Shown here: one piece after another, positions 8,704 to 47,227 of the stretch | Layout: every line of letters begins with the position of its first letter | Position numbering within the stretch: position 1 is the stretch's first letter | Assembly (NCBI GenBank): GCA_025361885.1 | Contig: JANYJF010000032.1 | Location: 1 to 57,252 of the forward strand | Direction of reading: 5' to 3' | DNA length: 57,252 nucleotides | DNA from: Coriobacteriia bacterium | Lineage (GTDB): Bacteria; Actinomycetota; Coriobacteriia; Anaerosomatales; PALSA-660 | Program-made: the position numbers and the translations under genes | The notes under the pieces: generated by a model | Database searches by the model: none | Told to the model about the DNA's origin: nothing | What the model saw: the letters and a program-made list of their open reading frames with translations, nothing else

Positions 8704-8753
8704 CACTCCCCCTCTAGCCGTCATGTCCCGTTCGGACCAGGACGCGAAGACGC

Positions 8754-15841: not shown

Positions 15842-15847
15842 AGCCGG

Positions 15848-19756: not shown

Positions 19757-19762
19757 GATTCC

Positions 19763-32321: not shown

Positions 32322-33437
32322 TTACGCGAGCAGGGACTCCAGCGGGGAGTACTCCATGCCGTGCGCGTCCGCGACCGACTTGTAGGTGACCTTGCCGTCC
32401 AGGACGTTGACGCCCCGTGCGAGCGCGGCGTCTTCGGCCACGGCCTTCTTCCAGCCCTTGTCAGCGATCGCGATGCCGTAGCGAAGAGTGGCGTTGACCA
32501 ACGCGTTCGTCGACGTGTTCGGCACGGCGCCAGGCATGTTGGCCACGCCGTAGTGCAGGACCCCGTCGACGAAGAAGGTCGGGTCGGCGTGCGTAGTGGC
32601 GTGGGTGGTCTCGATGCAGCCACCCTGGTCGACGGAGACATCGACGACGACAGCGCCGCGCTTCATGTTCGGCAGCATGTCCTTGGTGATGAGCCACGGG
32701 GTCTTGGCGCCCGGCAGCAGGACGGCACCGATGACGAGGTCCGCCGAGTACACGGCTTCCTCGATGTTGTGCTTGCTCGAGTACACGGTCCGCATGCGGT
32801 TGCCCCACAGCTCGTCGATGTACCGGAGCCGGTCGAGATTGACGTCCAAGACTGACACATGTGCGCCCATGCCGCAGGCGATGTAGGCCGCGTTGATGCC
32901 GACGACACCCGCGCCCAGGACCACGACGTTGGCCGGCAGCACGCCGGGGACGCCGCCCATGAGCACGCCGCGGCCGCCGAACGGCTTCTGGAGGTAGGTG
33001 GCGCCGACCTGCGCAGCCATGCGGCCGGCGACCTCGGACATCGGGGCCAACAGGGGCAGCGAACGGTTGGGCAGCTCGACCGTCTCGTACGCGATGCACA
33101 CGGCCCCGGACTTCACGAGACCGACGGTCTGCTCGTAGTCGGGGGCGAGGTGAAGATACGTGTAGAGGATCTGGCCGGGGCGCAGCATCTCGATCTCGGC
33201 AGGCTGCGGCTCCTTGACCTTCACGATCATGTCGGCCTTGGCGAAGATCTCCGCCGCCGCGTCGATGAGCGTCCCACCGGCGGCAACGTACTCGTCATCG
33301 GTGAACGAGGAACCCTCGCCCGCCGCCTTCTCGACGAGCACCGTGTGGCCATGAGCGATGAACTCGCGGACGCCACCTGGCGTCATGCCTACGCGGAACT
33401 CGTTGTTCTTGATCTCCTTGGGGACACCGATGATCAC
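32322..33437 (-). CDS. ald: Alanine dehydrogenase
   Basis: IIGVPKEIKNNEFRVGMTP, KVKEP, YLHLA, PMSEVAGR, DQGGCIET, VANMPGAV. GTG at 33437 has a GAAGGAG RBS. Confidence 0.97.
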   Translation of the reverse strand: MIIGVPKEIKNNEFRVGMTPGGVREFIAHGHTVLVEKAAGEGSSFTDDEYVAAGGTLIDAAAEIFAKADMIVKVKEPQPAEIEMLRPGQILYTYLHLAPDYEQTVGLVKSGAVCIAYETVELPNRSLPLLAPMSEVAGRMAAQVGATYLQKPFGGRGVLMGGVPGVLPANVVVLGAGVVGINAAYIACGMGAHVSVLDVNLDRLRYIDELWGNRMRTVYSSKHNIEEAVYSADLVIGAVLLPGAKTPWLITKDMLPNMKRGAVVVDVSVDQGGCIETTHATTHADPTFFVDGVLHYGVANMPGAVPNTSTNALVNATLRYGIAIADKGWKKAVAEDAALARGVNVLDGKVTYKSVADAHGMEYSPLESLLA

Positions 33438-33534
33438 AGCTGTTGCTCCTTCGATAGGCACCGATCCGACTGTGCGAGGCGCGCGGCGATCGAGTGTCTC
33501 GATGAGGCCCGCGCGCCTTGGCAAAACCTGTCCC

Positions 33535-33562
33535 AGTGTAGCGCTCCCGACCGTCAGTTCAA
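33535..33562 (-). promoter_or_regulatory. Putative ald promoter TTGAAC-16 nt-TACACT
   Basis: gttcaa at 33557-33562 and agtgta at 33535-33540. Confidence 0.55.
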
Positions 33563-33623
33563 GCAAGGCGGGCGGTACTCGCCGTGCGGACGGCGGTCAC
33601 GGACATGCTGAGGTCTCAGGGAA

Positions 33624-34691
33624 TCAGTGGAGCAAGTCCGCCGCCGCGCGTCCCGCCGCCGCGGCAGCCAAGAAGAACGCGGGATCGTCATCAGGTCCGC
33701 GGCCCATGGTGCGCACGCCGACCCCGCGGAGATCGGGAAGTCGGCCCGAGGACACGTCGGCGCGTGTGTGACGCTCCCAAACGTGCGCGGCCTCCAGCGC
33801 CGCATCGACCACGCCGGCCTGCTCACCGGGCAGCCGCGGCACGACCACCGTCGCGGGGTGAAGCGCGATCCGCCCGAGGGCGGTCAGCGAGTGATGGCTG
33901 ACGCCGCGGTGGCGCTCACGCTGGTCGGCGAACGAGATGCGCAGCGCGGCCAGTGGTCGCCCGCCCAGAACCCCGGCGGCGTTGATCGCCTCGCCCTGTG
34001 CGATGCCGCCGTGACCGAACGGTGTCCCCGTGCCCACCGTGCCGGGACCTATGGACACGATCGCGATGTCCGCGTGCGTAACGTGCCGGGCGGCGAGGAG
34101 AGCCGAATGCAGGGTCACGGTCTCCAATCCGCCACCGACGGCTTGACCGGCGGTCAGGGTCTCATCCAGCAGGCCGCTCTCGAGGCAGCTGCGAACGAGG
34201 TCGGAGAGCGCCATCATCATCGATGCCTGGTCGGTCATGACGTACGCCACCCGTGCGCCCGGCACACGCTCCTTGATGCCGGCCGCCACCAGCGCCACCT
34301 GGCTGTGCAGGCCACAACACACCACCGGCATGCCGGCGATGTCCTCGGCGCGCCGCATGACCTCGTGGTACGGGCTCTCTTGCGACTCGACCGCCAGAAC
34401 GTCGCGCTGCATCGGCGAGTAACGCAGCTTCATGATGTGTCCGTGCGACGGGTCGTCGAGCGCGACGTCATCCCCACCACCGCGGGCCACCACGAAGTGC
34501 GAGCCGCCAGTACCGAGGCGGAGGCGCACCGCGGTGGTGTTCAGCAGGACACGCTCGCCGGCCACGCACTCACCGGTGAGCGACGTGTAGCACACGGCCG
34601 AGCCCGGACCGTCGGGCGTCGACACGTCCAGCTTCTGATAGCCGGGTGCCGCCTGCTCGATGCGCACGACGTGTCCCCATACGAGGCGCAT
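33624..34691 (-). CDS. DUF3866 family protein
   Basis: VLLNTTAVRLRLGTGG, GHIMKLRYSPMQ, LHSQ, YVMTD, GPGTVGTGT, RISFADQRERHRGVSHHS, TMGR. Family recognised from memory. Confidence 0.8.
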   Translation of the reverse strand: MRLVWGHVVRIEQAAPGYQKLDVSTPDGPGSAVCYTSLTGECVAGERVLLNTTAVRLRLGTGGSHFVVARGGGDDVALDDPSHGHIMKLRYSPMQRDVLAVESQESPYHEVMRRAEDIAGMPVVCCGLHSQVALVAAGIKERVPGARVAYVMTDQASMMMALSDLVRSCLESGLLDETLTAGQAVGGGLETVTLHSALLAARHVTHADIAIVSIGPGTVGTGTPFGHGGIAQGEAINAAGVLGGRPLAALRISFADQRERHRGVSHHSLTALGRIALHPATVVVPRLPGEQAGVVDAALEAAHVWERHTRADVSSGRLPDLRGVGVRTMGRGPDDDPAFFLAAAAAGRAAADLLH

Positions 34692-34703
34692 GGCCGGTGT
34701 CGC

Positions 34704-35819
34704 CTAGCCCTCGACCGCGCGCAACACCGCGACGTCGAGCAAGCGGGTGAGCGCTTCGAGGTCGGCCACCGCGATCCACTCGCCGGTCGAGTGCACGTCA
34801 CGCATCCCAGACGACAGCACGAAGGTCGGAGTGCCGTGCGCGGCGAACACGTTCCCGTCGCTGCCTCCGCCGGTCGCGAACGTCCGCGGCGTCAGGCCGG
34901 CTTCACGGCAACATCCGATCACGAACAGCAGCGATGGATCGTCATCGGGAAAGCGGAAGCCGTCGTACTCCTTGTGCCACGTGATCGCCGCGGAACCCCC
35001 GGCTTCGCTCGCGGCACGGTGCATCGAAAGGTCCATCGCATCGCGAGCGGCGACGGCGCGGACCGGGTCCAGTGAACGGCACTCACCCGTTATCATCGTG
35101 GTCTCGGCCACGACGTTCGTCGCCCGTCCGCCGCCGATGGAGCCGATGTTGGCGGTCGTCTCTGCGTCGAGGCGTCCCAACTCCATGCCGGAGATCGCGC
35201 GTGAGGCCATCACGATGGCGGAGACGCCCTTCTCGGGCTCGACGCCGGCGTGCGCCGAGCGCCCGAGGAAGGTCGCGGTGAACGTGTAGTGGGTCGGGGC
35301 GGCGGTCACGATACCACCGGGCTCACCGTCGGCATCGAGCACCAGACACACGTCACCGGCCGCCGCGTCGGGCGGCAGGTGCTTAGCGCCGAGAAGGCCC
35401 TGCTCCTCGCCCACGGTGATCAGCGCGCGGACTTCCGCGTGCGGTGCGCCGGACTCGTGCAGCCGGCGGACCGACTCGATGATCGCGGCGATCCCGGCCT
35501 TGTCATCGGCGCCCAGGATGGTCTCCCCCACGCTGCGCACCACGCCATCGATGACCACCGGCTCGACGCCGCGGCCCGGCTCGACCGTGTCCATGTGCGC
35601 CGACAGCACGAGCACCCGGCCCGGCACCGTCCCCGGCAGCGTCGCGATGATGTTGCCGACATTCGATCCGGTGGCTCCGGGGCTGTCGTCGAAATGCACG
35701 TCCATGCCGGCCGCATCGAGCGCATGAGCCACATACGTCGCCACACCCGCTTCATCGCCAGTGGGACTGTCGATGCGGACAAGGTCTAGGAACGTGGCGA
35801 GAAGCCGCTCGTCGGACAA
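34704..35819 (-). CDS. M20 family metallopeptidase (peptidase T-like, YqjE-type)
   Basis: SAHMDTV, LGADDKAG, GEEQGLLG, AHAGVEPEKG, GGGSDGN, VHSTGE. TTG start. Confidence 0.9.
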   Translation of the reverse strand: MSDERLLATFLDLVRIDSPTGDEAGVATYVAHALDAAGMDVHFDDSPGATGSNVGNIIATLPGTVPGRVLVLSAHMDTVEPGRGVEPVVIDGVVRSVGETILGADDKAGIAAIIESVRRLHESGAPHAEVRALITVGEEQGLLGAKHLPPDAAAGDVCLVLDADGEPGGIVTAAPTHYTFTATFLGRSAHAGVEPEKGVSAIVMASRAISGMELGRLDAETTANIGSIGGGRATNVVAETTMITGECRSLDPVRAVAARDAMDLSMHRAASEAGGSAAITWHKEYDGFRFPDDDPSLLFVIGCCREAGLTPRTFATGGGSDGNVFAAHGTPTFVLSSGMRDVHSTGEWIAVADLEALTRLLDVAVLRAVEG

Positions 35820-35825
35820 GGCAGA

Positions 35826-37436
35826 TCAGCCCCTCGAGTTCTTGTAGGCCACCGCAGCGCCGATGAAGTCGCGGAACAGCGGGGCCGGGCGAGTGGGACG
35901 GCTCTTGAACTCGGGGTGACCCTGGTTGCCGACGAACCACGGGTGGTCGGGAAGCTCGATCATCTCGACCAGTTTGCCGTCGGGCGACAGCCCGGATATG
36001 ACGAGGCCGGCGTCGACCAGTTGCTGCCTGTACGTGTTGTTGACCTCGTAGCGGTGCCGATGCCGCTCGTAGATGACGTCTTCGCCATAGGCGTCCCAGC
36101 CCCTGGTACCCGGCGTGACCGTGCATGGGTAGGCACCGAGGCGCATAGTGCCGCCCATGTCGTGGACGGACTCCTGGTCGCGCATCAGGTCGATGACCGG
36201 GTGCGGCGTGACCGGGTCGAACTCGGTGGAGTTGGCTCCGGGAAGACCCGCCACGTTGCGAGCGAACTCGGAGACCGCCACTTGCATGCCGAGGCAGATG
36301 CCGAAGTACGGGACCTTGTTCTCGCGGGCGTAGCAGGCCGCGCGGATCTTGCCCTCGATGCCGCGGACGCCGAAGCCGCCGGGGACCAGGATGCCGTCCA
36401 TCTCGGACAGCATCTGGTCGACCTCCTCGACTGTGATGCCCTCGGCGTCGACCCAGTCGATCTTCACGTCGTGCTCGTGGAAGATACCGGCGTGCTTGAG
36501 CGCCTCGTGGACCGAGAGGTACGCATCGGGGAGCTGCACGTACTTGCCGACCAGCGCGATGCGTACGGTGTCCGTGAGCGACTGGCTATGGCGGACGAAG
36601 TTCTCCCACCCACTCATGTCCGGCTCCCCGCACTCCAGCCCCAGATGGTCGATGACCATCTGGTCGAGCATCTGCTCGCGCAGGTTGAGCGGCACCTGGT
36701 AGATGGAGGGCGCGTCCTGTGCGGAGACCACGGCGGCGGGGTCCACGTCGCAGAACAGGCCGATCTTGCGCCGGATGCCGGCGTCGATGGGACGGTCGGA
36801 GCGGCACACGATGAAGTCGGGCTGGATGCCGATGCTGCGCAACTCCTTGACGGAGTGCTGTGTGGGCTTGGTCTTCAGCTCGCCGGAGGCGGCGATGTAC
36901 GGCACCAGTGTGACGTGGATGTAGCACACGTTGTCGCGCCCGACGTCCTTCTTGAGCTGGCGGATGGCCTCGAGGAACGGCAGCGACTCGATGTCGCCGA
37001 CGGTGCCGCCGACCTCGGTGATGATGACGTCGGGCTGGGTGGCCTCGGCCAAGCGGATGATCCGCTCCTTGATCTCGTTGGTCACGTGCGGGATGACCTG
37101 CACGGTGCCACCGAGGTAGTCACCTCTTCGCTCCTTGGTGATGAGCGTCTGGTAGACCGAGCCGGCCGTCACGTTGCAGTCGCGCGACAAGGACTCATCG
37201 ATGAACCGCTCGTAGTGGCCGAGGTCGAGGTCGGTCTCGCCTCCGTCATCGGTCACGAAGACCTCGCCGTGCTGGAACGGACTCATGGTACCGGGATCGA
37301 CGTTGAGGTACGGGTCGAGCTTCTGGATGGTGACCTTCTGCCCACGCGCCTTGAGCAGCCGGCCCAGTGATGCTGCCGTGATGCCCTTGCCGAGCGAGCT
37401 CGCCACGCCTCCGGTCACGAAGATGTGCTTCGTCAT
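35826..37436 (-). CDS. pyrG: CTP synthase
   Basis: [54 protein letters not shown]. Confidence 0.99.
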
Positions 37437-37441
37437 AGTCC

Positions 37442-38566
37442 TTACCGTGCCTCCCCGTCTGTGCCGCCTGTGTCCGCCGTTGCCGCCGTGCCGTTCTCGC
37501 CGCCTGCGTCCAAGCCCGCCGCAACGTCTGATCCATCATGTGCCCTGCCGAGGCCGTCGAGCCACCGCAGGAGAGGAACCTTCTCTATGGACTCCGAGAA
37601 GCTGATCTTCTCGGAGAGCAGATTCAAGGCGAGGAGGAGGGTGGCCGCCACCGCCAGTCCCCACAAGGGCAGAGTGGCCGCGAGCACGAAGCCTGCCAGG
37701 GCGCCAGCGGCATTCGCGCCGGCGTCGCCGAGCATGCCGCGCTCACCCAGGTCGTAGCGCCACACGGCCACGACCGGGCCGAGCAGGAGGATGACCAAGA
37801 CCACCGCGACGAGGATGGCCTGCGGCGCGGGAGCGACCCCCGAGGGGACTTGCTCCTCCGCGATCGCTGCCGAGCCCAACGCCCCGGGAAGCGCCGCGGC
37901 GACGGCCCCGACGGCCAGCAACGAGTAGCACTTCAGCGCGCGCCCGGGACGCAGGTCCGTGAGGTTGATGAGGTTGGCGGCAAGAGCGATCACGGCCGCG
38001 CCGAGCAGCCACCCGGCCAGCACGACGAACGCCACGGTTCGTGGTTGCGAGATGCCGCCAGCCGCATCGAATGCCCGGCGCAGCGCGGGTTCGACGCAGA
38101 CAGCCAGGGACGCGAGGCCGATCCCGAGCATCTTGAGTCCGCCGGTCGTCAGCCGGCCATGTCGAAGCGCGTCGATGTGCCCGCGGAAACCCTTGGTATC
38201 CGCACCGCCGAAGGCGTCGTCGATCAGCCCGAAGGCGAACGCCGCCGTCACAAGCAGCACCGGGACGAGCCACGCCGCCTCCCGGAGCACATCGGGGTAG
38301 ACCGCCGGCTGCAGCGTTCCGGTCATCGCAAGGACAGAATCCAGCCCGTCCGCGACGACCGTCACCGTCCAGACTCCGACAGCCCACAGCACCCACACCA
38401 GCCCCAGGCCCGGCGTGACCTCACGGCCCCGATAGTTGACGACCCGCATCCGGGACCGCTCCAACGCCGGCATGAGCGCCCGCATCCCGAGAGCCGGGAC
38501 GCCCCATCCGGCGACGAGCGCCAGCCCGACAGACACGATCCCGGCTATCCACATCGGCGTCATCAC
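37442..38566 (-). CDS. MraY/WecA-like (Glycos_transf_4) polytopic membrane protein, divergent paralog
   Basis: [41 protein letters not shown]. These are degenerate versions of the mraY motifs in this window; no HHH motif. Confidence 0.72.
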
Positions 38567-40914
38567 GAGGTGGTGATCTTCCCGGTGCGGAGGGCGCTCG
38601 CATCATCGGCAGGTGCGGGGCCTTCGGCCGCCATGCGCGTCATGATCAGGTACAGGGCTCCCACGCCAACATAGAGGATGATGAGCGCCGGGATGATGAT
38701 CCCGGAATCCTCAGTGAAGTATGCCACCGTGCCGGCAACCAGGCTGGCGGTCAGTCCGGCCGAGTAGCCCGGCCATCGCTCGAGCATCGCCTTGAACTCC
38801 CCGCGCGGCTTCCATCGCAGGTAGATGAGCGTTCCCATGATCCCGACGAGCAGGTATGTCCAGTTGGTGCGGGTCAGCACCCGGAAGTTGGTGTCGGCCT
38901 TCCTCATGATGATCGTCCACAGCGCGCCGACCCCGCCGACGCCGGCGGACTGAAGGGCCTTGCCCAGATGCGTCTCGCGTCCCGGGCTGCCGAGCAGGTC
39001 GATCGCCGACAGCGCCGCGACGAGGAGGACGACGAGCAGCAGCACGACGCCGGCCGTCTTCCAGCTCAGCACCTTGCGGCCGTTGATGAGGGCCCAGAAC
39101 ACCCCATAGCCGACGGTGCCCCAGATCGCCACACCAACGTTGGCCCCGAACATCGGGGCTGCGGAGGTGACCACCATCAGAACGCCGAGCACCGGCACTC
39201 CCCACTTCTTCGCGGCGCCTATCCACGGCTTGTCGCGCAGGATGTCGAGCAGGACACCCGCTCCGATGATGGAGGCGCCGAGGATCAGTGCCGCTGACTC
39301 GTTGCCCATCCCGTAGAAACGTGCCCCGAACAGTGGCGAGTAGGAGAAGAAGCCGGTCTGAGACAGCGGCGCACCCACCCATTGGTCGACGAGCACGACC
39401 GCTGTGGTCCCGAGACCGAACACCGCGATGCGAACTCCCGAGTGATCGTCGCGCGAGACGAGAAGCACGGCAGCCCACAGGAGCAGCGCGACACCTATCA
39501 GCAGCGATGTCACCGCGCCTGCTGTCGGGGGCCATCGCCACACGAGGAATCCGACCGTGCTCGCCACCGGGACAGCAAGTGTCAGGAGCAGCAGCGACCG
39601 AAGGATCCTGCCCCAGCGACCTGTCACGCCGCCCACGCCTCCTACGACGAGGAACGTGCACAACACCAAGATGCCGACGACCAGGCTGATATAGGCATTG
39701 ACCACGGAGAAGCGCACGACCTCGACCGCGACCGACGTGCGGTTGTACTCGTCGAGGGTGGCGACACGGTCCTCAAGCGTCGCCCCGGCCGATGTCGAGC
39801 CGATGACGGCGCCCGGCATCGAGGACGGCGCCTTGGCGCCCAACGCGGCGAGTGTCGTCGCACCGATGTCCATGAACGTCACGATCCCCGGCCGGTGCGT
39901 CGATGAGGCGGTGGCCACGCCTCCCGACAGACCGGGGCCCTTCAGAACAGCCGGCACCAGCCCGGGGGGCTCGCCCTCCACTTCTGGAGCCGCGAGGCTG
40001 ACCACCATGATCGTGTCCTGAGGCCCGAGGGCGGCGGCAACACGGGAAACCACCTTGTCGAGCTCGCGCAGAGCGGTCGCGTGCTGGGCGGCGACGACCT
40101 GTGTCGACGCGTCCGAGGCCGAAGCCGCGACGCGAGACAGATCACCCGGATCGATGACAGCGAAGATGGCGCCGCTGGATGACGCACGGGTGGCGGATGA
40201 CATGGCCTTCGTGTAGGCGGAGAGCAACTTGGCGACGTCGGTGCGGACACCGAAAGGTCGGGTGGGGTCGGTATCGAGCGTGCGGGCGGAGACGTCACCG
40301 AACATGGTGCGGCCAGCCGCGTCCATCGCGATCATGCCGGCCGGGCGGACCCGCATGATGTCACTCAGCGACAGGCCGGGATCCGAGTTGCCGGCGCCCA
40401 CCGTGGCGCCACCGGCGTCGCGGACCGCCTGGCCGAGCGTTCCGACAGCCCCCGGCGTCGACAGATCGCGGTTTGCGAACCTCTGCCGCGGCACGCCGAG
40501 GAAGACGACCTGGTCGCCTGACGGGGACGCACCCGACAGCCGCGAGAACTCGGTGGCAGCGAGCCCGCCCTCGGTGTACTCGTCCGACGAGTAGGCCTCG
40601 AGCGATGTCGGATCGATGGTGACTCCCGCGCCTGCGGAGAGCAGCAGCGCCCCCTTGACGATCGCCGAGGTGCCGACGCCGACGGAGCCGCTTCGCAGGT
40701 TCACATTGGCCAGCGTGCCGGAGCGGGCCAGGCCGCGGATCGACGGTACGGGGCCTTTGGTGATGTCGTTCCACGTCATATACGGGGCGACGATGACCAC
40801 GACGGCGCGCGGACCCGTCGGGGCGGTGGCCCCTGCAGCCGCCGAGGAGGTGAGCGGAAGGCTCAGTCCCACGAGGCAGACCATCGCGATCATCGCAGCC
40901 AGGCGTCGCTTCAT
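38563..40914 (-). CDS. Large uncharacterised membrane protein: signal peptide, extracytoplasmic alpha/beta domain (possibly alkaline-phosphatase-like fold), about 10-12 C-terminal TM helices
   Basis: ATG at 40914 (MKRRLAAMIA...). Motifs SSTHRPGIVTFMDIGAT, GARFYGMGNE, GANVG, THLG, EDSG. Its stop overlaps the next ATG. Confidence 0.8.
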   Translation of the reverse strand: MKRRLAAMIAMVCLVGLSLPLTSSAAAGATAPTGPRAVVVIVAPYMTWNDITKGPVPSIRGLARSGTLANVNLRSGSVGVGTSAIVKGALLLSAGAGVTIDPTSLEAYSSDEYTEGGLAATEFSRLSGASPSGDQVVFLGVPRQRFANRDLSTPGAVGTLGQAVRDAGGATVGAGNSDPGLSLSDIMRVRPAGMIAMDAAGRTMFGDVSARTLDTDPTRPFGVRTDVAKLLSAYTKAMSSATRASSSGAIFAVIDPGDLSRVAASASDASTQVVAAQHATALRELDKVVSRVAAALGPQDTIMVVSLAAPEVEGEPPGLVPAVLKGPGLSGGVATASSTHRPGIVTFMDIGATTLAALGAKAPSSMPGAVIGSTSAGATLEDRVATLDEYNRTSVAVEVVRFSVVNAYISLVVGILVLCTFLVVGGVGGVTGRWGRILRSLLLLTLAVPVASTVGFLVWRWPPTAGAVTSLLIGVALLLWAAVLLVSRDDHSGVRIAVFGLGTTAVVLVDQWVGAPLSQTGFFSYSPLFGARFYGMGNESAALILGASIIGAGVLLDILRDKPWIGAAKKWGVPVLGVLMVVTSAAPMFGANVGVAIWGTVGYGVFWALINGRKVLSWKTAGVVLLLVVLLVAALSAIDLLGSPGRETHLGKALQSAGVGGVGALWTIIMRKADTNFRVLTRTNWTYLLVGIMGTLIYLRWKPRGEFKAMLERWPGYSAGLTASLVAGTVAYFTEDSGIIIPALIILYVGVGALYLIMTRMAAEGPAPADDASALRTGKITTS

Positions 40915-41052
40915 GCTCTCACTCCAAACGGCGCACCCGGGCGTGCGGACACATGGTCCGGCCCGGGCGATGGGCCAAGCGTGCGGGGGCTGGTGACGGA
41001 TCGGGCGACATGGTGCCTGTGCGCGCCCGGGCAGCAGAGGTGCCCGACCAGA

Positions 41053-41116
41053 AGTATACCGGAATATGTCGCGACGACGCGGAAGTTCCTGTGGGTGTGT
41101 TGCCGTCCGGTAGAAT
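41053..41116. promoter_or_regulatory. Divergent -10 elements: TATACT (minus, 41053-41058) and TAGAAT (plus, 41111-41116)
   Basis: Both match TAnnnT and sit between divergently transcribed genes. No clear -35. Confidence 0.5.
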
Positions 41117-41158
41117 GGCGGCGAAGCATACCGCGACCGCATCCACCCGGAGGCACCC

Positions 41159-42787
41159 ATCGCCGCTCCGTCGATAGCACGCTCGACCGCGACCATGTCG
41201 GTCTCGACGCTCGTCTCCCGCATGACCGGCTTCGTGCGGACGTGGGCGATGGCCGTCGCGCTGGGCGTCACCATGACGTCCACAGGCGCGATACCGGTCG
41301 CCTCTTCGTTCAACATCTCCAACAACATCCCGAACATGATCTACGAGCTGCTGGCTGGCGGGGTCCTGTCCGCCATGCTCATCCCGATCTTCATGGAGCG
41401 ACTCGAGAAGGATGGCCAGGAGGGCGCGTTCCACTTCATCCGATCGCTGTTCAATCTCGCCTTCGTGGTGCTGGGCCTGGTCGCGCTCATCGGGACGTTC
41501 CTCCCATACCCGTTCGTCCGCACCCAGACGTTCACGGTCAAGCCCGAGGAGGTCCAGCTCGCGGTCTACTTCTTCCGCTTCTTCGCCGTACAGATCGTGT
41601 TTTACGGGATGATGGCGATCACCACGGGCGTGCTCAACTCGTACCGGCACTTCTTCGCGCCGGCGATCGCTCCGGTGCTCAACAACGTCGTGGTCATCGT
41701 CGCGCTGCTAGGTGTCTACATCCCGATGCGCGCCTCGCACCCCATGTGGGCCGTCACCGCGCTCGCGGTTGCGACCACGCTGGGCGTCGTGGCGCTCCTC
41801 GTGGTGCAGCTGCCGGTGCTCTTCAAGCTCGGATTCCGGTTCAAGCTCGGGATCGACTGGAAGGACCCGTCTCTGCGCAAGCTGGGCATCAAGATGCTCC
41901 CGATCCTGCTGTACGTGGCGACGAACCTCGTGGGCGTGTCGTTCCGCAACGCCTACGCCACCTCTGCGTTCCGCGATGGCTCGGCGACGCTGTCATACGC
42001 CTGGATGTGGTACCAGTTGCCGTACGGCGTCTTCGCCGTGGCGCTCATCACCGCGCTCGTGCCCGAGCTGTCCGAGATGGCGGCGAAGAAGGACTGGACC
42101 TCGTTCAAGACGACCTTCTCCACAGGATTGCGCGCGCTCGGCGTCCTGGTCCTGCCGATGGCCGCGATGCTCATCGCTTTGGCGGGGCCGCTCGTGACCC
42201 TGTACCGCGCCGGCAATTTCCCGCAGGCCGCCGTGCCGCTCGTCTCCAGCGTCCTGATGGCGTGGACTCTGGGCCTGTTCTCGTTCTGCGCGTTCATGTT
42301 CGTGCTGCGCACGTTCAACACGATGCAGGACAGCCGGACGCCGGCGATCGTCAACGTGTTCGTCACGGTCCTGCAGGTCGCGCTGTACGCAGGACTGACG
42401 AGCATGACGGCATGGGGCAACTTCCGCCTCGTCGGCATCCCGGCCGCGGACGCGATCGCCTACACGCTCAACGTCGCGATCCTTCTGATCATCCTGCGCC
42501 GCCGCATCGGCGCGTTCGACGGCCGTCGCATCGTCGGGACGCTCGGCGTCGTGCTGGGAGCCTCGCTGCTCGGTGGCGGCGCCGCGTGGGGAGCCTCGCG
42601 TCTGGCCGGCCTCGCGCTGCACGCCGGCCGCTTCGCCTTCCTCGGGCAGATCGCCGCCGGTGGCGTCGCCGGGCTCGTGGTCGCCTACGGCCTGCTCCTC
42701 GTGCTGAAGGTGCCCGAGATGGGGATCGCGGCTTCCATGGCCAAGCGGGTGGTCGGTCGCGCACTGCCGAAGAGGGCCGCATCCTGA
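41159..42787 (+). CDS. murJ: MurJ/MviN family (MOP) flippase; start probably ATC at 41159 (first ATG at 41195)
   Basis: SRMTGFVR, NNIPNMIYELLAGGVLSAMLIP, GVLNS..FFAPAIAPVLNN, YQLPYGVF, QDSRTP. Confidence 0.9.
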   Translation: MAAPSIARSTATMSVSTLVSRMTGFVRTWAMAVALGVTMTSTGAIPVASSFNISNNIPNMIYELLAGGVLSAMLIPIFMERLEKDGQEGAFHFIRSLFNLAFVVLGLVALIGTFLPYPFVRTQTFTVKPEEVQLAVYFFRFFAVQIVFYGMMAITTGVLNSYRHFFAPAIAPVLNNVVVIVALLGVYIPMRASHPMWAVTALAVATTLGVVALLVVQLPVLFKLGFRFKLGIDWKDPSLRKLGIKMLPILLYVATNLVGVSFRNAYATSAFRDGSATLSYAWMWYQLPYGVFAVALITALVPELSEMAAKKDWTSFKTTFSTGLRALGVLVLPMAAMLIALAGPLVTLYRAGNFPQAAVPLVSSVLMAWTLGLFSFCAFMFVLRTFNTMQDSRTPAIVNVFVTVLQVALYAGLTSMTAWGNFRLVGIPAADAIAYTLNVAILLIILRRRIGAFDGRRIVGTLGVVLGASLLGGGAAWGASRLAGLALHAGRFAFLGQIAAGGVAGLVVAYGLLLVLKVPEMGIAASMAKRVVGRALPKRAAS

Positions 42788-43467
42788 ACGCCGTCGCGAT
42801 CATCCCCGCGCACGACGAGTCCGAACGCATCGAGGCGACGGTGAAGGCCGCTCTCGCGATCCCCCGCGTCGTGCGGGTCCTGGTGGTCGACGACGCCTCG
42901 TCGGACGACACCGCCGAGCGCGCGAGCGCCGCCGGCGCCGACGTCCTGCGCCTCGAGCGCAACGTCGGAAAGGGCGCCGCGCTCCAGGCGGGGCTCGAGC
43001 GTACGCGCCGGGGCAGGGACGCGGTCCTTCTGCTCGACGGCGACCTCGCCGAGACGGCTTCGCAGGGCGCTCTCCTGCTCGGGCCGGTGCTGGCCGGTGG
43101 GGCCGACATGACCATCGCGCGCTTCCCGAAGCCGGCGAACAAGGCGGGGTTCGGGCTGGTGATGCGCCTGGCCAGGTGGGGCATCCGGCGCTACGGCCGC
43201 GCGGACTTCCTGGCCACCGCTCCCCTGTCGGGGCAGAGGGCGCTCAGCCCCCACGCTGTGGACGCGGTCATGCCCTTCGCATCCGGTTATGGCGTAGAGG
43301 TCGCGATGACGTCGCACGCCCTGCGCGCCGGGCTGCGCGTCCTCGAGGTCGACACGACGATGGCGCACGCCGCCACGGGCCGGGACATCGCCGGATTCGT
43401 CCACCGTGGAAGGCAGTTCGCGGACGTGGCCTCGGCGCTGCTCGCCCTGCGGCGCGAGCTGCGCTGA
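42784..43467 (+). CDS. Glycosyltransferase family 2 (GT-A fold); probable CTG start overlapping the murJ stop
   Basis: VAIIPAHDE, VVDDASSDDT, NVGKGAAL, LLLDGD (DxD), APLSGQRA, GYGVEVAMT, HRGRQF. Confidence 0.88.
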   Translation: MNAVAIIPAHDESERIEATVKAALAIPRVVRVLVVDDASSDDTAERASAAGADVLRLERNVGKGAALQAGLERTRRGRDAVLLLDGDLAETASQGALLLGPVLAGGADMTIARFPKPANKAGFGLVMRLARWGIRRYGRADFLATAPLSGQRALSPHAVDAVMPFASGYGVEVAMTSHALRAGLRVLEVDTTMAHAATGRDIAGFVHRGRQFADVASALLALRRELR

Positions 43468-43513
43468 GGGCGCTGGGCGAGAGCCACGACCGACCGGGAC
43501 CGCCGTCCGATCG

Positions 43514-44380
43514 CTACTTCGGGATCGTGGCGGTGAGCGGGCTCGGGTACGCACCGTCGACACCGCGCGCCAAGCCGAATCGTCCGTCAGCCCGCCCGAG
43601 CAACACCCACACGAGCGAGACCTGGCCGAGCGGGGTGTCCGCGTGATCGACGGTGGGCAGACCGGCGTCGGACGCGGCAGCCGCGACACCGGTCGCGTGT
43701 TTCGTCGTCTCCGCTCCGGCAGCCATCTGGCCGTGCGACTTGGCCGCCGAGGCCAGCGCGATCTGCGCCGCATCGGCCTTGTCGTCGAACGCTCCGGTGA
43801 CCACGAACAGCGTGGGCGTCCCAGCGCCGTCGGGCCTGGTCATGGAGAGCTCTCCGGCCGCCACGAGCAGGTCTGTCAGAGGGCTCGGTATTCCCGGAGC
43901 GTTGGCGAATTCGCGGGCAAGCACGTCGGCGGTCGGGGCGGTCAGATCGCCGCTCGCGTCCGCCGCGAGCACCGCCGCCACCTTGGCGGCGAGCGCCTTG
44001 TCCTTCAAGCCGAAGCCGGCGTCGCGGAAGGTCGCCGCGATCGACATGCCGCCCGCCTTCGCCACTGCATCGCCTACCGCGGCCGCGGCGTCCGCGCGGC
44101 CCGCGTTGCCGAGCACCAGGACCGTGCGACCGGACAGTCTGTTCGCCACCAGGACCGGCGCGGCATCCGTGACGAACGCCTTGTTCGTATCCAACTCGGA
44201 CTTGAGCTGGGTGTTATCCGTCCGCAGCGCTGAGTACTCCTTCTGAAGGCTGTCGACCAGAGTCGTGCGCTGCGCGTTGAGCGTGCCGCGTTCCACGACG
44301 ACGGTGCCGAGCAACAGCCCGATGGACAACGCGAGGAACACCGCGACGAGCGATGCGATGTGATAGCGGAAGTTGTACAT
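43514..44380 (-). CDS. steB: SteB/MctB-like ('copper transporter', DUF3186) membrane-anchored protein
   Basis: FRYHIASLVAVFLALSIGLLLG N-terminus, coiled coil, PTVDHADTPLGQVSLV. Directly after steA. Confidence 0.85.
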   Translation of the reverse strand: MYNFRYHIASLVAVFLALSIGLLLGTVVVERGTLNAQRTTLVDSLQKEYSALRTDNTQLKSELDTNKAFVTDAAPVLVANRLSGRTVLVLGNAGRADAAAAVGDAVAKAGGMSIAATFRDAGFGLKDKALAAKVAAVLAADASGDLTAPTADVLAREFANAPGIPSPLTDLLVAAGELSMTRPDGAGTPTLFVVTGAFDDKADAAQIALASAAKSHGQMAAGAETTKHATGVAAAASDAGLPTVDHADTPLGQVSLVWVLLGRADGRFGLARGVDGAYPSPLTATIPK

Positions 44381-44407
44381 GCGCCTTGGACCTTCCAGTC
44401 GTTTCGC

Positions 44408-45529
44408 TTACATGCCCAGGAGTGTGCGTATGCGCAGCAGGCCGAGACCGAGTGCCGCACGCGCGGACGAGGAGATCATGACTATGACGGTCAGCGTGAC
44501 GAGCGCCGATCCGACTATTGCGACCAGTCCGTTCAGACCCGGGGTCGCGCGGTACAGCTTGTTCACGCCCTTGGCGTCCACGAGCTTCGGACCCACCTTG
44601 AGGCGCACGAGGAACGTCGAGGCCATGCCCTTGCGACCCTTGTCGAGGTACTCGATCAGGTTGGCGTGTGTTCCGACCGCCACGATCAAGTCGGCGCCCG
44701 ACTCGTATGCGAGCAGAAGCGCCAGGTCCTCGGACGTGGCAGCGAGCGGCCACGTGACGCCGGTCAGCCCGAGCTGCTGCAGTCGCTCCATTCCAGGCGC
44801 CCGCCCGTCGGGATACGCATGGACGACGAGTTCGGCACCGGCGCGAAGGGCCGCGTCGGTCACGGAGTCCATGTCTCCGATGATGATGTCGGGCGCGAAG
44901 CCCGCGTCGCGCAGGGCGTCGGCTCCGCCGTCCACGCCGATGAGCACAGGCTTGACCTCACGGATGTAGGGCCGCAGCGCCTGCAGGTCTTCCTTGTAGT
45001 CGTAGCCACGCACGACGACCATCACGTGCCGGCCCTCGATCTGGGTCGTGATCGCCGGGAGTCCGACTCCCTCGGTCAGCAGGTTCTTGTCTTGTTCGAG
45101 GTACTCCAAGGTGTTGCGGGCGAACTTGTCCAGCTGCTCGCCGATCCCCGCCTTGGCATCCTCCATGGATTGCTCGATCGACTCGACTGTCAGGCGCGTT
45201 CCCGACGCCACGACCTGCCCACCGTACAGCACGTCACAACCCACGACCTCGACCGTGTCGCCCTCCCGGACCTTCTCGAAGATCTCGGGGCCGACAGCGT
45301 CGAGAACAGCGACCCCGCCGCGCGTGAGAATGAGCGGACCGACGTTCGGGTAGACGCCTGTGATCGACCGCGAGGCGTTCACGACGACTTCGACGCCGGT
45401 GCCCAGCAGCCCCTCGGCGCTCACCCGGTCGAGGTCCGCATGATCGATGATGGCGATGTCCGAAGGACCGAGACGCTTGGTGAGATCCTTGGTGCGCTTG
45501 TCGAGACGCGCGGTTCCCTGATGATGCAT
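44408..45529 (-). CDS. steA: Putative cytokinetic ring protein SteA (thiamine-pyrophosphokinase-like domain)
   Basis: DKRTKDL, IIDHADLDRVSAE, YPNVGP, VVRG, IGVDGGADAL, PDIIIGDMDSV, VVHAYPDG, STFLVRLKVG.KLVDAKGV. Position after recN. Confidence 0.9.
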   Translation of the reverse strand: MHHQGTARLDKRTKDLTKRLGPSDIAIIDHADLDRVSAEGLLGTGVEVVVNASRSITGVYPNVGPLILTRGGVAVLDAVGPEIFEKVREGDTVEVVGCDVLYGGQVVASGTRLTVESIEQSMEDAKAGIGEQLDKFARNTLEYLEQDKNLLTEGVGLPAITTQIEGRHVMVVVRGYDYKEDLQALRPYIREVKPVLIGVDGGADALRDAGFAPDIIIGDMDSVTDAALRAGAELVVHAYPDGRAPGMERLQQLGLTGVTWPLAATSEDLALLLAYESGADLIVAVGTHANLIEYLDKGRKGMASTFLVRLKVGPKLVDAKGVNKLYRATPGLNGLVAIVGSALVTLTVIVMISSSARAALGLGLLRIRTLLGM

Positions 45530-45601: not shown

Positions 45602-47227
45602 TCATCGTGTTGAGGCCGTGGAGAGGAGTTCCCTGGCGTGCGCGAGCCCGGTGTCGGAGTCGGATCCGGACAGCATCCGGGCAACCTCGACGACGCGCTC
45701 CTCACCGACGACCGGGCGTACTCGCGTGACGGCCCGGCCGTCGACCTCGGACTTCTCGACGACCAGATGCGCGTCCGCGTATGCGGCGACCTGTGCGAGA
45801 TGGGTGATGACGAGGACCTGGTGCCGCTTCGCCAGCAGCGCGAGCCGCTTGCCGACGGCCAGCGCGGTCGCTCCGCCGATCCCCGCGTCGATCTCGTCGA
45901 AGACGAGCACGGGCACGGTATCCGCATCGCCCAGCACGCCTTTGAGCGCGAGCATGACGCGGCTCACCTCGCCGCCGGACGCGATACGCGCGAGGGGCCG
46001 GGGAATGTCGCCGCCGCTCGAGGAGAACATGAACTCGACTCTGTGCGGGCCGTCAGCGGTCCACGCGGCGAAGCCGAGCGGCGCCATTGCGACCTCGAAG
46101 ACGGCACCGGGCAAGGCCAGGTCCGATGCCGCGGCGGCAAGCTGTTCGGTGAAGCGCGGCGCGGCCTGCGAGCGCACCGTGACGAGCGCATCACCGGCCT
46201 GGCGCAGATTCGCTTCGGCGGAGCGCACCGCTTCGTGCGCGGCCTCCAGTCCCGCCTCCCCCGCCTCGAGTGTGACGATCTCCGCCGCGGCGGACTCGCG
46301 AGCCTCCAGCGCGTCGTCGATGGTGCCGCCGTACTTGCGCTTGAGTGACATGAGGGCCGCAAGGCGCGATTCCGCCTCGTTGAGGGCCCCGACGTCGTAG
46401 TCCGTCGACTCGCCGTAATCACGGATGCGGCAGCCCGCGTCGTCGACGGCTGTGATCGCCGATGACAGGTCGGCGGCGATCGCGTCGAGGGCCGGGTCCA
46501 GCCCTCCGCCCGCGTGCAGCGCGGCGAGCGCCTTCGCGAGCGTGTCGGACGCGCCCCCGTCGCTTCGCAGGGCGTCGAACGCCGCGGACGACGCCTCGGT
46601 GAGTTTGCCTGCGTGACGCATACGCGGAAGGCGCTCTTCGATCGCGCTGTCCTCGCCCGGAGCGGGGGCCACTGCGTCGATCTCGTCGACCGTCCAGCGC
46701 AGACTCTCGATGCGGCTGTCCCGATCGGTCATCGCGGCCGCGAGGCGCGCGGCCTCCTGCCGAGCGCGCACCGCCGACGCCCACGCGTCGCGATACGCCG
46801 CGAGCGCATCTTGGGCTGGTGCTCCGGCGAAGCGGTCGAGGTATGCGGCGTGCCGCGCGGGATGCAGCAGCGACTGGTGCTCGTGCTGACCGTGCAGGTC
46901 GACCGCCGGGCCCAAGGCGTCGTCGAGACCGGCGACCGACGCCATCTCACCGTCCAGGTAGCACTTGGAGCGACCCTCGGCGGAGAGCCTGCGGCGGACG
47001 AATCGCTCGCGACCATCGAGCACGAAGCGCCCTTCGACGACCGCCTCTGCCGCACCGGAGCGCACGAGCGTCGCGTCCGCGCGTTCCCCCAGCAGCAGTT
47101 TGAGAGCACCGACCAGGACCGTCTTGCCCGCGCCGGTCTCACCCGTGAGCACCGTCATCCCCGGACCGAGTTCCAGCCATGCCTCGTCGATGAGGGCGAG
47201 GTCCTTGACGTGGAGTTCCTCGAGCAC
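45602..47227 (-). CDS. recN: DNA repair protein RecN
   Basis: LTGETGAGKT, HGQHEHQ, IASGGEVSRVML, FDEIDAGIGG, ITHLAQVAA. Confidence 0.97.
   Translation of the reverse strand: MLEELHVKDLALIDEAWLELGPGMTVLTGETGAGKTVLVGALKLLLGERADATLVRSGAAEAVVEGRFVLDGRERFVRRRLSAEGRSKCYLDGEMASVAGLDDALGPAVDLHGQHEHQSLLHPARHAAYLDRFAGAPAQDALAAYRDAWASAVRARQEAARLAAAMTDRDSRIESLRWTVDEIDAVAPAPGEDSAIEERLPRMRHAGKLTEASSAAFDALRSDGGASDTLAKALAALHAGGGLDPALDAIAADLSSAITAVDDAGCRIRDYGESTDYDVGALNEAESRLAALMSLKRKYGGTIDDALEARESAAAEIVTLEAGEAGLEAAHEAVRSAEANLRQAGDALVTVRSQAAPRFTEQLAAAASDLALPGAVFEVAMAPLGFAAWTADGPHRVEFMFSSSGGDIPRPLARIASGGEVSRVMLALKGVLGDADTVPVLVFDEIDAGIGGATALAVGKRLALLAKRHQVLVITHLAQVAAYADAHLVVEKSEVDGRAVTRVRPVVGEERVVEVARMLSGSDSDTGLAHARELLSTASTR

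Follow-up and report, generated by a model that had tools for sequence, protein, structure and literature searches.

A six-gene module around steA and steB, and a candidate lipid-carrier glycan pathway coupled to it, in Actinomycetota and Clostridia-type Bacillota

What ties the genes of SteA and SteB to those of a glycosyltransferase, a MurJ-type flippase, a large membrane protein without a family and a divergent MraY-like enzyme, all lying between recN and pyrG, with a DUF3866 gene two genes beyond: a shared pathway, or simply a shared address? The question is raised by positions 33624-45529 (exactly from the DUF3866 stop to the steA start) of a 57,252-nucleotide stretch of DNA with a G+C content of about 67%, hereafter “the window”, which is contig C43 (JANYJF010000032.1) of a 1.65-Mb metagenome-assembled genome of a Coriobacteriia bacterium (70 contigs, 91.6% complete, 2.1% contaminated). 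A sequence-only reading of this DNA had proposed that these genes form one pathway that loads a sugar or sugar-phosphate onto a polyprenyl carrier, flips it and transfers it to a septal or wall acceptor. Our answer is a graded one: six core genes, namely, steA, steB, the family 2 glycosyltransferase (GT2) gene, the MraY-like gene, the DUF3866 gene and the gene of the 783-amino-acid membrane protein (X783 hereafter), very probably constitute one functional module, of which a PepT-like M20 hydrolase and MurJ are frequent companions, and that module is best read as a lipid-carrier glycan pathway to which SteAB is coupled, an interpretation that we favour slightly and every step of which is inferred.

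The module is seen, above all, in joint presence. Two samples were compared, comprising 151 genomes of the window’s phylum (sample 1; X783 at an expectation value, E, <=1e-10, MraY-like at E<=1e-10, SteA at E<=1e-20; seven unpublished genomes, G006, G023, G053, G087, G093, G125 and G153, are included in the counts, and no loci were taken from these) and 121 genomes from the phylum of the Caldanaerobacter genome G002 (sample 2, Clostridia-type; X783 at E<=1e-10, MraY-like at E<=1e-8, SteA at E<=1e-20). In both, the presence of DUF3866 tracks that of SteA, X783 and the MraY-like protein, with joint presence/absence, as well as adjacency, counted by hand:

Sample 1 (151 genomes): DUF3866 in 80, X783 in 75, MraY-like in 78, SteA in 82; full set of four in 70, part of it in 16, no match in 65
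Sample 2 (121 genomes): DUF3866 in 77, X783 in 79, MraY-like in 76, SteA in 78; full set of four in 75, part of it in 5, no match in 41

X783 accompanies DUF3866 in 77/77 DUF3866-positive genomes of sample 2 and is seen in 2/44 of the negative ones, even though it usually lies hundreds of kilobases from the operon there (e.g., in G271, G247, G197 and G207), so that the co-occurrence in this sample does not come from adjacency. Where adjacency is found, it involves X783 and the MraY-like gene no more than 5 kb apart in 29/72 of the sample 1 genomes having both (6 of these 29 are unpublished) and SteA and DUF3866 no more than 4 kb apart in 29/77 of the sample 2 genomes (on the same contig within 30 kb in 46/77). 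SteA without DUF3866 is rare (4/82 and 1/78 of the SteA-positive genomes in samples 1 and 2, respectively). Related genomes are not independent, and these numbers are to be read as a pattern, not as a probability. Ten sample 1 genomes from the window’s class and other families (G017, G032, G047, G062, G077, G091, G105, G119, G133 and G147) had SteA, DUF3866 and the MraY-like protein unmatched in all cases, with one partial X783-like match (G047); the module seems to have been lost in the better-known families of this class.

Clustering is the other line of evidence, and it was followed in 80 loci fetched around X783 relatives, of which 35 show the window’s order and orientation, these being every Coriobacteriia-type locus among them, which makes the order more than chance. 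Seventeen of the 35 span tlyA to DUF3866, three (L008, L013 and L021) carry inserted DNA, and the others are cut by contig ends. Two loci of Bacillota (L048 and L084) present a steA-steB-GT2-MraY-like-DUF3866 operon divergent from X783, and the remaining 43 show X783 without other module genes within the fetched DNA. Five Bacillota genomes of this “X783-alone” kind nevertheless encode DUF3866 in 5/5 cases, three of them within a run of tlyA-nadK-recN-(about 2.3 kb unannotated)-steA-steB-GT2-MraY-like-DUF3866, and two with steA elsewhere; among eight further loci of that phylum, seven are variants of the run, some with a PepT-like gene before DUF3866 and an alanine dehydrogenase gene after it, and one shows DUF3866 alone. 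The tlyA-nadK-recN flank is conserved in both phyla, and steB follows steA in every related locus. In other Actinomycetota families, represented by 14 loci, 12 loci from nine families have the MraY-like gene between steB and pyrG, together with GT2, MurJ, X783, or MurJ and X783. The arrangements after steA-steB (for the last entry, the whole run) are as follows:

Family f5: MurJ-GT4-X783-MraY-like-pyrG (the family 4 glycosyltransferase, GT4, identified in L112 only)
Family f12: MurJ, then DUF3866 and X783, then MraY-like-pyrG
Families f15 and f6: GT2-MraY-like-pyrG-DUF3866
Family f32: GT2-MraY-like-pyrG-PepT-DUF3866
Families f14 and f10: GT2-MraY-like-pyrG
Families f42 and f39: MraY-like and MurJ, in either order
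Family f38 (L123 and L124, two 6-Mb genomes): tlyA-nadK-recN-steA-steB-pyrG, with nothing between steB and pyrG

The last arrangement is the one published for Mycobacterium and Corynebacterium, and, set beside the others, it looks like a reduced form. The window’s steA and steB are clear members of the Mycobacteriales SteA and SteB families and likewise follow tlyA-nadK-recN, whereas the window differs from the Mycobacteriales locus in its four extra genes between steB and pyrG and in DUF3866 past pyrG. The sequence-only reading had pointed to similar neighbourhoods in Clostridia and other actinobacteria, and both were indeed found, clustered and co-occurring; the outcome that it had named as refuting its idea, a lack of co-occurrence or clustering elsewhere, did not arise, and the genes keep company, and stay together, across two phyla.

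As to the window itself, gene calls were made from an open reading frame listing and a third-position G+C filter, followed by Pfam and NCBIfam matches, and the genes in question are the following:

44408-45529, minus strand: steA (NF040608, 497 bits, cut-off 150; PF12555 and PF04263)
43514-44380, minus strand: steB, MctB family (PF11382, E 5.7e-33, 115 bits, cut-off 25.6)
42784-43467, plus strand: GT2, 227 amino acids (PF00535, E 4.7e-16, 59.6 bits, cut-off 23.3)
41195-42787, plus strand: MurJ (TIGR01695, 290 bits, cut-off 235.55; PF03023, 299 bits, cut-off 27.4)
38563-40914, minus strand: X783, 783 amino acids (without a Pfam or NCBIfam family)
37442-38566, minus strand: MraY-like protein, 374 amino acids (unmatched in Pfam and NCBIfam at E<=0.01)
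35826-37436, minus strand: pyrG, CTP synthase, a housekeeping gene inside the run (NF003792, 869 bits)
34704-35819, minus strand: PepT-like M20 metallopeptidase/deacylase (TIGR01883, 340 bits, cut-off 274)
33624-34691, minus strand: DUF3866 (PF12982, E 3.1e-116, 388.5 bits, cut-off 25, whole profile covered)
45602-47227, minus strand: recN, the upstream flank, outside the module (TIGR00634, 487 bits)

Further out lie nusB, xseB, dxs, tlyA and nadK upstream, and genes of alanine dehydrogenase, a GNAT protein and a XerD-like recombinase downstream. The gene set reported by the sequence-only reading, between recN and pyrG with DUF3866 beyond, is thus present in full and in place; what had escaped it is that MurJ and GT2 are on the opposite strand, converging on steB and diverging from the X783 gene, which means that the set is not one co-directional operon. 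A tight minus-strand run is formed by X783, the MraY-like gene, pyrG, the PepT-like gene and DUF3866, with gaps of no more than 12 bases and a 4-base overlap of the MraY-like start with the X783 stop, and steB begins 27 bases past the end of steA.

X783 has many kin, which make up 3110 representative clusters at E<=1e-3 (844 at 1e-30), and a relative is encoded in 526/601 candidate stretches from species-representative genomes. Its AlphaFold model (mean predicted local distance difference test score, pLDDT, 81.6; predicted template modelling score, pTM, 0.80) shows a signal anchor, an ectodomain at about residues 31-376 and a polytopic membrane domain at about 380-765. The closest fold match of the ectodomain is PafA (5too_A, Z-score 21.6, root-mean-square deviation, rmsd, 3.5, 280 residues aligned), and 69 chains reach Z>=8, the best 50 of which (Z>=16.8) are all alkaline-phosphatase-fold enzymes, sulfatases, NPPs, LtaS/LtaP, PbgA/YejM and MCR-1 being found at Z 17-20; Foldseek gives E 2e-4 and weaker (sulfatases and LtaS). 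By its model, then, the ectodomain has the core alpha/beta fold of the alkaline phosphatase superfamily, which the sequence-only reading, in naming structure prediction with fold search as a check, had missed; the check was run on X783. In active enzymes of this fold, strand 1 is followed by a conserved acidic residue that binds metal, and the nucleophile is Ser, Thr or formylglycine. Judged by an alignment of 15 sequences rather than by superposition, neither a conserved acid past strand 1 (the position reads APY, MPR, VDG, LPG or VPT) nor a conserved Ser/Thr nucleophile (the residue after the invariant R74 is S, T or G) was found in X783, so that the canonical catalytic set seems to be missing; D178, R190, D198, D226, D258, R261, T339, R341 and D349 are invariant in the same 15. 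LtaS, EptA/MCR-1 and PbgA/YejM share the ectodomain fold (LtaP 4uop_B, Z 18.1; PbgA 6xlp_A, Z 18.4; MCR-1 5gov_B, Z 16.9), and X783 differs from them in its reversed domain order (ectodomain first, membrane domain last), in its far larger membrane domain and in not conserving the canonical strand-1 metal ligand and nucleophile.

Folded alone (376-783; pLDDT 92.9, pTM 0.92), the membrane domain has as its best three matches among 48,161 chains RodA (6pl5_A, Z 8.5, rmsd 6.1, 229 aligned), WaaL (7tpj_B, Z 8.4, rmsd 5.7, 256 aligned) and FtsW (8bh1_A, Z 8.3, rmsd 5.7, 234 aligned), followed by designed helical proteins (Z 7.5 and 7.4), E. coli RodA (7.3) and AftB (9dlh_C, 6.6); by the models, this resemblance may serve as a lead only. 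X783 was unmatched by SEDS (PF01098) and by Wzy_C (PF04932, even at E<=1) in the genome search, which had three SEDS and four above-cut-off Wzy_C matches, all elsewhere. A GT-C type, which had been expected, was not recognisable in X783: AftB reaches Z 6.6 only, and the RodA/WaaL/FtsW likeness is weak, within the noise for helical bundles. In 39 sequences drawn from the two phyla, R532, G535, N538, G590, H649, R671, D736 and G738 are invariant, and D510, Y534, K672, N676 and S737 are nearly so. With the ectodomain placed outside, helix order and hydropathy would put all of these conserved membrane-domain residues at the outer face of the membrane, where RodA/FtsW and WaaL likewise have conserved charged residues; these, in turn, are without the large N-terminal ectodomain that X783 has.

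The GT2 is soluble, with no hydrophobic or membrane segment, and of the Dpm1/AglJ/PpgS-like kind, its DGD motif (D85 and D87) being invariant in 21 sequences. The closest NCBIfam families, AglJ, GpgS and PpgS, are all far under their cut-offs, and no cut-off of a named polyprenyl-phosphate sugar synthase is passed (AglJ, 72 bits vs. 325; PpgS, 49 vs. 370; ArnC, 22 vs. 529). In six natural proteins it is fused to X783: P0019 reads GT2-X783, P0199, P0205, P0221 and P0291 read X783-GT2-X783, and P0269 is a partial form. The GT2 profile matches all six at full length (219-240 bits), and the GT2 part of P0019 is 50% identical to the window GT2 (E 9e-47). One further fusion joins X783 to X783 (P0203), and tandem X783 duplicates occur in L061 (9887-14322) and L111 (9964-14222), for which reason X783 may work as a dimer. 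The start of the window GT2 is odd: ATG, GTG and TTG are all missing at the expected position, where 29/31 of the related loci scored have a start codon (ATG or GTG), and the window has a CTG at 42784 that overlaps the MurJ stop (C-TGA; window 42781-42790), which suggests either that translation begins at a non-canonical codon or that GT2 is coupled to MurJ by termination-reinitiation.

In other lineages, a different glycosyltransferase keeps X783 company. In 16/80 loci, none of them Coriobacteriia-type (L037, L039, L040, L046, L049, L053, L055, L056, L063, L065, L068, L073, L079, L081, L082 and L083), the X783 gene is directly adjoined or overlapped by a same-strand gene of one GT4 (GT-B) subfamily, and a GT4 gene lies between MurJ and X783 in one Actinomycetota family (f5; L112, 8682-9767). 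The best GT4 homolog of the window genome is on contig C9 (9912-11084; 36-39% identity to three Clostridia-type queries), next to uninformative neighbours (a 382-amino-acid uncharacterised protein and radical-SAM/B12 genes).

Is the MraY-like protein what its label says? Members of the MraY/WecA superfamily have about ten membrane helices and conserve three motifs, Asp-Asp, NxxNxxD and a GDxGS-type one. The window protein has about 8-9 hydrophobic segments, and D115-D116, N197/N200/D203 (NLxNLxD, then LRPGRA) and G279, D280 and G282 (MLGD280AGAN) are invariant in 23/23 aligned members; we take these to be the Asp-Asp, NxxNxxDGxDGL and GDxGS motifs of MraY/WecA, the aspartates of which are catalytic. 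The invariant DD, NxxNxxD and GD(A/S)G(A/S)N are thus shared with MraY, WecA and TagO, while the second Asp-Gly of DGxDGL reads LRPGRA here. PF00953 was matched by the window protein below threshold in the genome search (E 0.055, 13.2 bits, profile positions 2-156 of 160) and by 7/23 aligned members at E<=1 (best 1.4e-5), and no other family was matched by more than one of the 23; of 1624 relatives at E<=1e-3 among 8000 scored candidates, 3 of the 120 listed bear a precomputed PF00953 label. The “MraY-like” call of the sequence-only reading, therefore, holds for the motifs and not for the family assignment, and the protein is probably a divergent, active member of the MraY/WecA superfamily, outside the Pfam family as defined. 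Besides it, the genome has two canonical PF00953 genes, the mraY of the window and a second one on contig C19. The former (15848-16906) belongs to a division/cell-wall (dcw) cluster in the same window (7666-21625), which also holds an FtsW-type SEDS gene (match 13347-14384).

MurJ calls for more restraint. It is the one PF03023 match (1 of 1) in this 1.65-Mb, 91.6% complete genome. Four other genomes with MurJ at the locus (G097, G013, G102 and G082) have 2-3 copies each, the locus copy being a divergent paralog that scores weaker. A maximum likelihood tree of 22 rows separates six locus paralogs (support 96/93) from the rest, that is, from five non-locus copies, the window MurJ and ten Coriobacteriia-type orthologs. 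A dedicated flippase in the window was accordingly considered and rejected, the protein being the sole genome copy and on the canonical side of the tree, and the claim that it is the pathway’s own flippase cannot be made here; the window MurJ is of the canonical type and presumably exports lipid II. That two separate MurJ lineages are found at the same locus is itself suggestive. Two oddly labelled records, L057 (“Aeromicrobium sp.” metagenome-assembled genome), the MurJ of which nests within the Coriobacteriia-type clade, and L033 (“Candidatus Bathyarchaeia archaeon”, a 2548-base contig), both bear a Coriobacteriia-type locus and are probably mis-binned or mislabelled contigs.

DUF3866 is cytoplasmic; it gave no usable atlas hit and only chance matches among PDB sequences (E about 0.09), and it was not found in 14 control genomes, E. 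coli and B. subtilis among them. The PepT-like gene is directly upstream of it in Coriobacteriia-type loci and in L094, L099, L102, L104 and L121, and the M20 hydrolase is a probable accessory member of the module; the order of PepT-like, then DUF3866, recurs in both phyla. An alanine dehydrogenase gene follows DUF3866 in the window (32322-33566), L101, L104, L115 and L116, and follows pyrG in L111, L112, L119 and L120. In most Actinomycetota loci pyrG comes after the MraY-like gene, which is not so in Clostridia-type loci.

SteA consists of a cytoplasmic thiamine-pyrophosphokinase-like core and one C-terminal hydrophobic segment (a membrane helix), and SteB of one N-terminal hydrophobic segment, its membrane anchor, followed by an extracytoplasmic domain. 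According to a 2026 paper (PMC12977500), the two form a transmembrane complex, described as regulatory, by which RipA is positioned; a conserved pocket of SteA, predicted to bind carbohydrate, resembles the thiamine pyrophosphokinase nucleotide site, and GDP or UDP, unlike ADP or triphosphates, stabilises the SteA of Corynebacterium glutamicum. Such a pocket, with such a stabilisation, fits a sensor, and the suggestion that SteA might be catalytic in the pathway finds no support. The same paper calls SteAB “largely restricted to Actinobacteria” and places steAB downstream of spo0A in some Clostridia (PMC12977500). The terms glycosyltransferase, MurJ, flippase and pyrG have zero occurrences in its text (supplementary synteny figures aside), a term search of the 2019 SteAB paper (PMC6705760; supplementary figures aside) gave no mention of glycosyltransferase, MurJ or flippase, and literature searches, the coverage of which leaves out most subscription journals and supplements, returned no paper in which SteAB is linked to any glycosyltransferase, flippase or carrier lipid. 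The window genome has a single NlpC/P60 protein (contig C20, 47176-47454; L130, 1480-2640, minus strand), in which a signal peptide and a long coiled-coil stretch precede the catalytic domain, an architecture equal to that of RipA/RipC, which are controlled by SteB and FtsEX.

A counterpart with phenotypes exists in C. difficile. In a 2025 study (PMC12157513), cdr20291_1053-1057 (steA-steB-GT2-GT-DUF3866) are listed as essential with function unassigned, as is cdr20291_1124; the knock-down of cdr20291_1053-1056 (1057 was untargeted) resulted in a strong viability defect and in chaining, short, swollen and phase-bright cells, and that of cdr20291_1124, a 723-amino-acid membrane protein, in chaining, curved and phase-bright cells. 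The products (pyrophosphokinase, 373 amino acids; exported protein, 291; GT2, 230; glycosyl transferase, 274; DUF3866, 355; membrane protein, 723) are the same in kind as those of the window and nearly so in size, and relatives of C. difficile show the same operon (L090), whereas in C. difficile a single operon holds all five genes, X783 is found apart from it, next to alaS on the downstream side, and no MurJ, pyrG or PepT-like gene is in the cluster (PMC12157513). The X783 profile matches a C. difficile 723-amino-acid membrane protein, P0422 (cluster of P0317), with a probability of 100% and E 3.4e-42 over 642 columns; alaS is directly upstream of the X783 homolog in 3/3 Peptostreptococcaceae loci tested, with an open reading frame of 878-936 amino acids there in 6/6, which agrees with a remark on cdr20291_1124 in PMC12157513. 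From length, annotation and the alaS neighbour, we infer that P0422 is cdr20291_1124.

How might such a module work? On the inner side of the membrane, the MraY-like enzyme would transfer a sugar-1-phosphate from a UDP-sugar to polyprenyl phosphate; the GT2, held at the membrane by X783, would extend the lipid-linked sugar or make a polyprenyl-phosphate sugar, to which, in other lineages, the adjacent GT4 may add. A MurJ-type flippase (the cell’s only MurJ here, a dedicated paralog elsewhere) would move the product outward, and X783 would transfer or polymerise the flipped glycan onto a wall or membrane acceptor by means of the invariant Arg, His and Asp beneath its ectodomain. SteA would bind a UDP- or GDP-type nucleotide and so read the state of the pathway, the SteA-SteB complex would position the coiled-coil NlpC/P60 hydrolase, tying septal wall cleavage to polymer synthesis, and DUF3866 and the PepT-like hydrolase would be cytoplasmic tailoring or recycling enzymes. 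For a single lipid-carrier pathway, as the sequence-only reading had it, the module, its clustering, the fusions, the MraY-like motifs, the family and DGD motif of the GT2, the folds and outer-face residues of X783, the divergent MurJ paralogs at the locus in other lineages, the coiled-coil NlpC/P60 protein, the effect of GDP or UDP on SteA (PMC12977500) and the C. difficile phenotypes (PMC12157513) all speak, the lipid-linked intermediate, the sugar and the acceptor being putative.

Quite a few points weigh against this pathway, starting with its chemistry, which is drawn wholly from family resemblance. The window MurJ, sole and canonical, is explained by lipid II export alone, and many lineages have no MurJ at the locus. 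The X783 ectodomain may be non-catalytic, given that neither the acid after the first strand nor a nucleophile is conserved; the membrane-domain Z-scores of 8.3-8.5 are under the noise level of about 13 for helical bundles, and Foldseek returned nothing at E<=0.001 for that domain. The window MraY-like protein fails Pfam (E 0.055), its family profile finds no solved MraY, WecA or GPT structure among PDB sequences (only chance ChRmine matches at E 0.75), and the comparison of the profile with the two canonical PF00953 enzymes of the genome is weak (E 0.016, probability 2.85%), though the NxxNxxD and GD motifs came out aligned. G074, G088, G116 and G144 (about 6-7.5 Mb), two of which were fetched and are the f38 loci, have SteA and not DUF3866, as does the control C. 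glutamicum, so that SteAB can work without the rest of the module; genes shared by descent, moreover, make the co-occurrence counts overstate independent support. The authors of the C. difficile study themselves name polarity on the upstream alaS as a possible cause of the cdr20291_1124 phenotype and raise, for PS-II, that essentiality of a late step can reflect carrier-lipid trapping rather than a need for the product (PMC12157513).

The rival explanations have to be seen against this background. The most serious one, which we still consider unlikely, has the module as a sensor or regulator complex in which X783, possibly along with the MraY-like protein, has no catalytic role; a carrier lipid or a wall precursor would be bound, and the signal would pass via SteAB to control wall hydrolysis, with no new glycan being made. 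In its favour, the ectodomain is without the conserved metal-binding acid and nucleophile, the lipid-binding and inactive PbgA/YejM is among the ectodomain matches (6xlp_A, Z 18.4; 6vat_A, Z 18.0), and PMC12977500 describes SteAB as a transmembrane complex that is regulatory and has a pocket for a ligand. Harder to accommodate are the MraY-like motifs Asp-Asp, NxxNxxD and GD, invariant in 23/23, and the eight invariant X783 residues, Arg, Asn, His and Asp among them, at the outer membrane face; the retained DGD of the GT2 and the repeated GT2-X783 fusions are hard to explain without catalysis.

Two further rivals question either the link between the genes or the carrier. Inherited gene order without a shared pathway, in which these genes have separate roles within an ancient housekeeping string (dxs-tlyA-nadK-recN ... 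pyrG-alaDH) and MurJ is the lipid II flippase, would account for functionally unrelated flanks (tlyA-nadK-recN, pyrG and alanine dehydrogenase) in the same order in both phyla and for the sole, canonical-type MurJ of the window. We find it very unlikely, as tlyA, nadK, recN and pyrG are near-universal genes, whereas the four module genes are matched or missed en bloc, X783 is fused to the GT2, and, in sample 2, a distant X783 still occurs in all of the DUF3866-positive and hardly any of the DUF3866-negative genomes (77/77 vs. 2/44). Equally little credence is given to a carrier-independent synthase, that is, a GT2 that polymerises a glycan on X783, the membrane domain of which exports it directly, in the manner of cellulose-type synthases, and the ectodomain of which modifies it outside, the MraY-like protein being a separate matter: the GT2 does sit between or before X783 units in the fusions, on the cytoplasmic side, and alkaline-phosphatase-fold enzymes that decorate exported polymers are known (e.g., BcsG on cellulose), yet the short, 227-amino-acid GT2 is nearest to polyprenyl-phosphate sugar synthases (AglJ and PpgS) and not to processive ones, the MraY-like gene overlaps the X783 stop in the window and is within 5 kb of X783 in 29/72 genomes, and MurJ paralogs have been recruited to the locus.

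Among known systems, the lipid-carrier pathway may be set beside the three-part transmembrane glycosylation systems GtrA/B/C, ArnC/ArnT and PpgS with Rv3779. The likeness consists in a Dpm1-like GT2 (the nearest named NCBIfam families of which include PpgS and ArnC), in a flippase and in a polytopic protein whose site faces outward. These systems differ in having no constant MraY-type initiating enzyme, which the window module has; furthermore, the window’s polytopic protein is not a recognisable GT-C and bears an alkaline-phosphatase-fold domain, its flippase is MurJ-type and not GtrA-type, and the whole set is tied to SteAB.

What would this mean for the biology of SteAB? The gene kinds themselves were already known, and the operon of C. 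difficile has been published as essential, its role being left unexplained (PMC12157513); what is new relative to the literature found is the tie between SteAB and carrier-lipid enzymes across two phyla, the Mycobacteriales form as a reduced one, and the X783 family with its domain make-up. The six C. difficile genes listed in 2025 as essential with function unassigned (PMC12157513) gain a biochemical context, and the UDP/GDP-type ligand of SteA reported in 2026 (PMC12977500) gains a candidate origin. Nucleotide sugars and lipid-linked intermediates now offer a direct way to test what SteA senses. A large membrane-protein family, with 3110 representative clusters and no Pfam or NCBIfam model, has been defined, and a conserved, essential and surface-exposed pathway, whose DUF3866 is missing from the 14 control genomes searched, is of interest as a narrow-spectrum target. 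As a wider, tentative proposal, which we consider possible and would not put higher than that, SteAB may be, rather than a hydrolase regulator standing by itself and centred on Mycobacteriales, the control arm of an ancient, often essential carrier pathway that Clostridia-type Bacillota have in common with roughly half of the Actinomycetota sampled, in which X783 would be a new transferase family and the UDP/GDP pocket of SteA would read the nucleotide output of the pathway and delay septal cleavage until polymer synthesis, and of which Mycobacteriales would have kept the control arm only; the arrangement of the loci suggests that mycobacterial SteAB is a remnant of a larger system.

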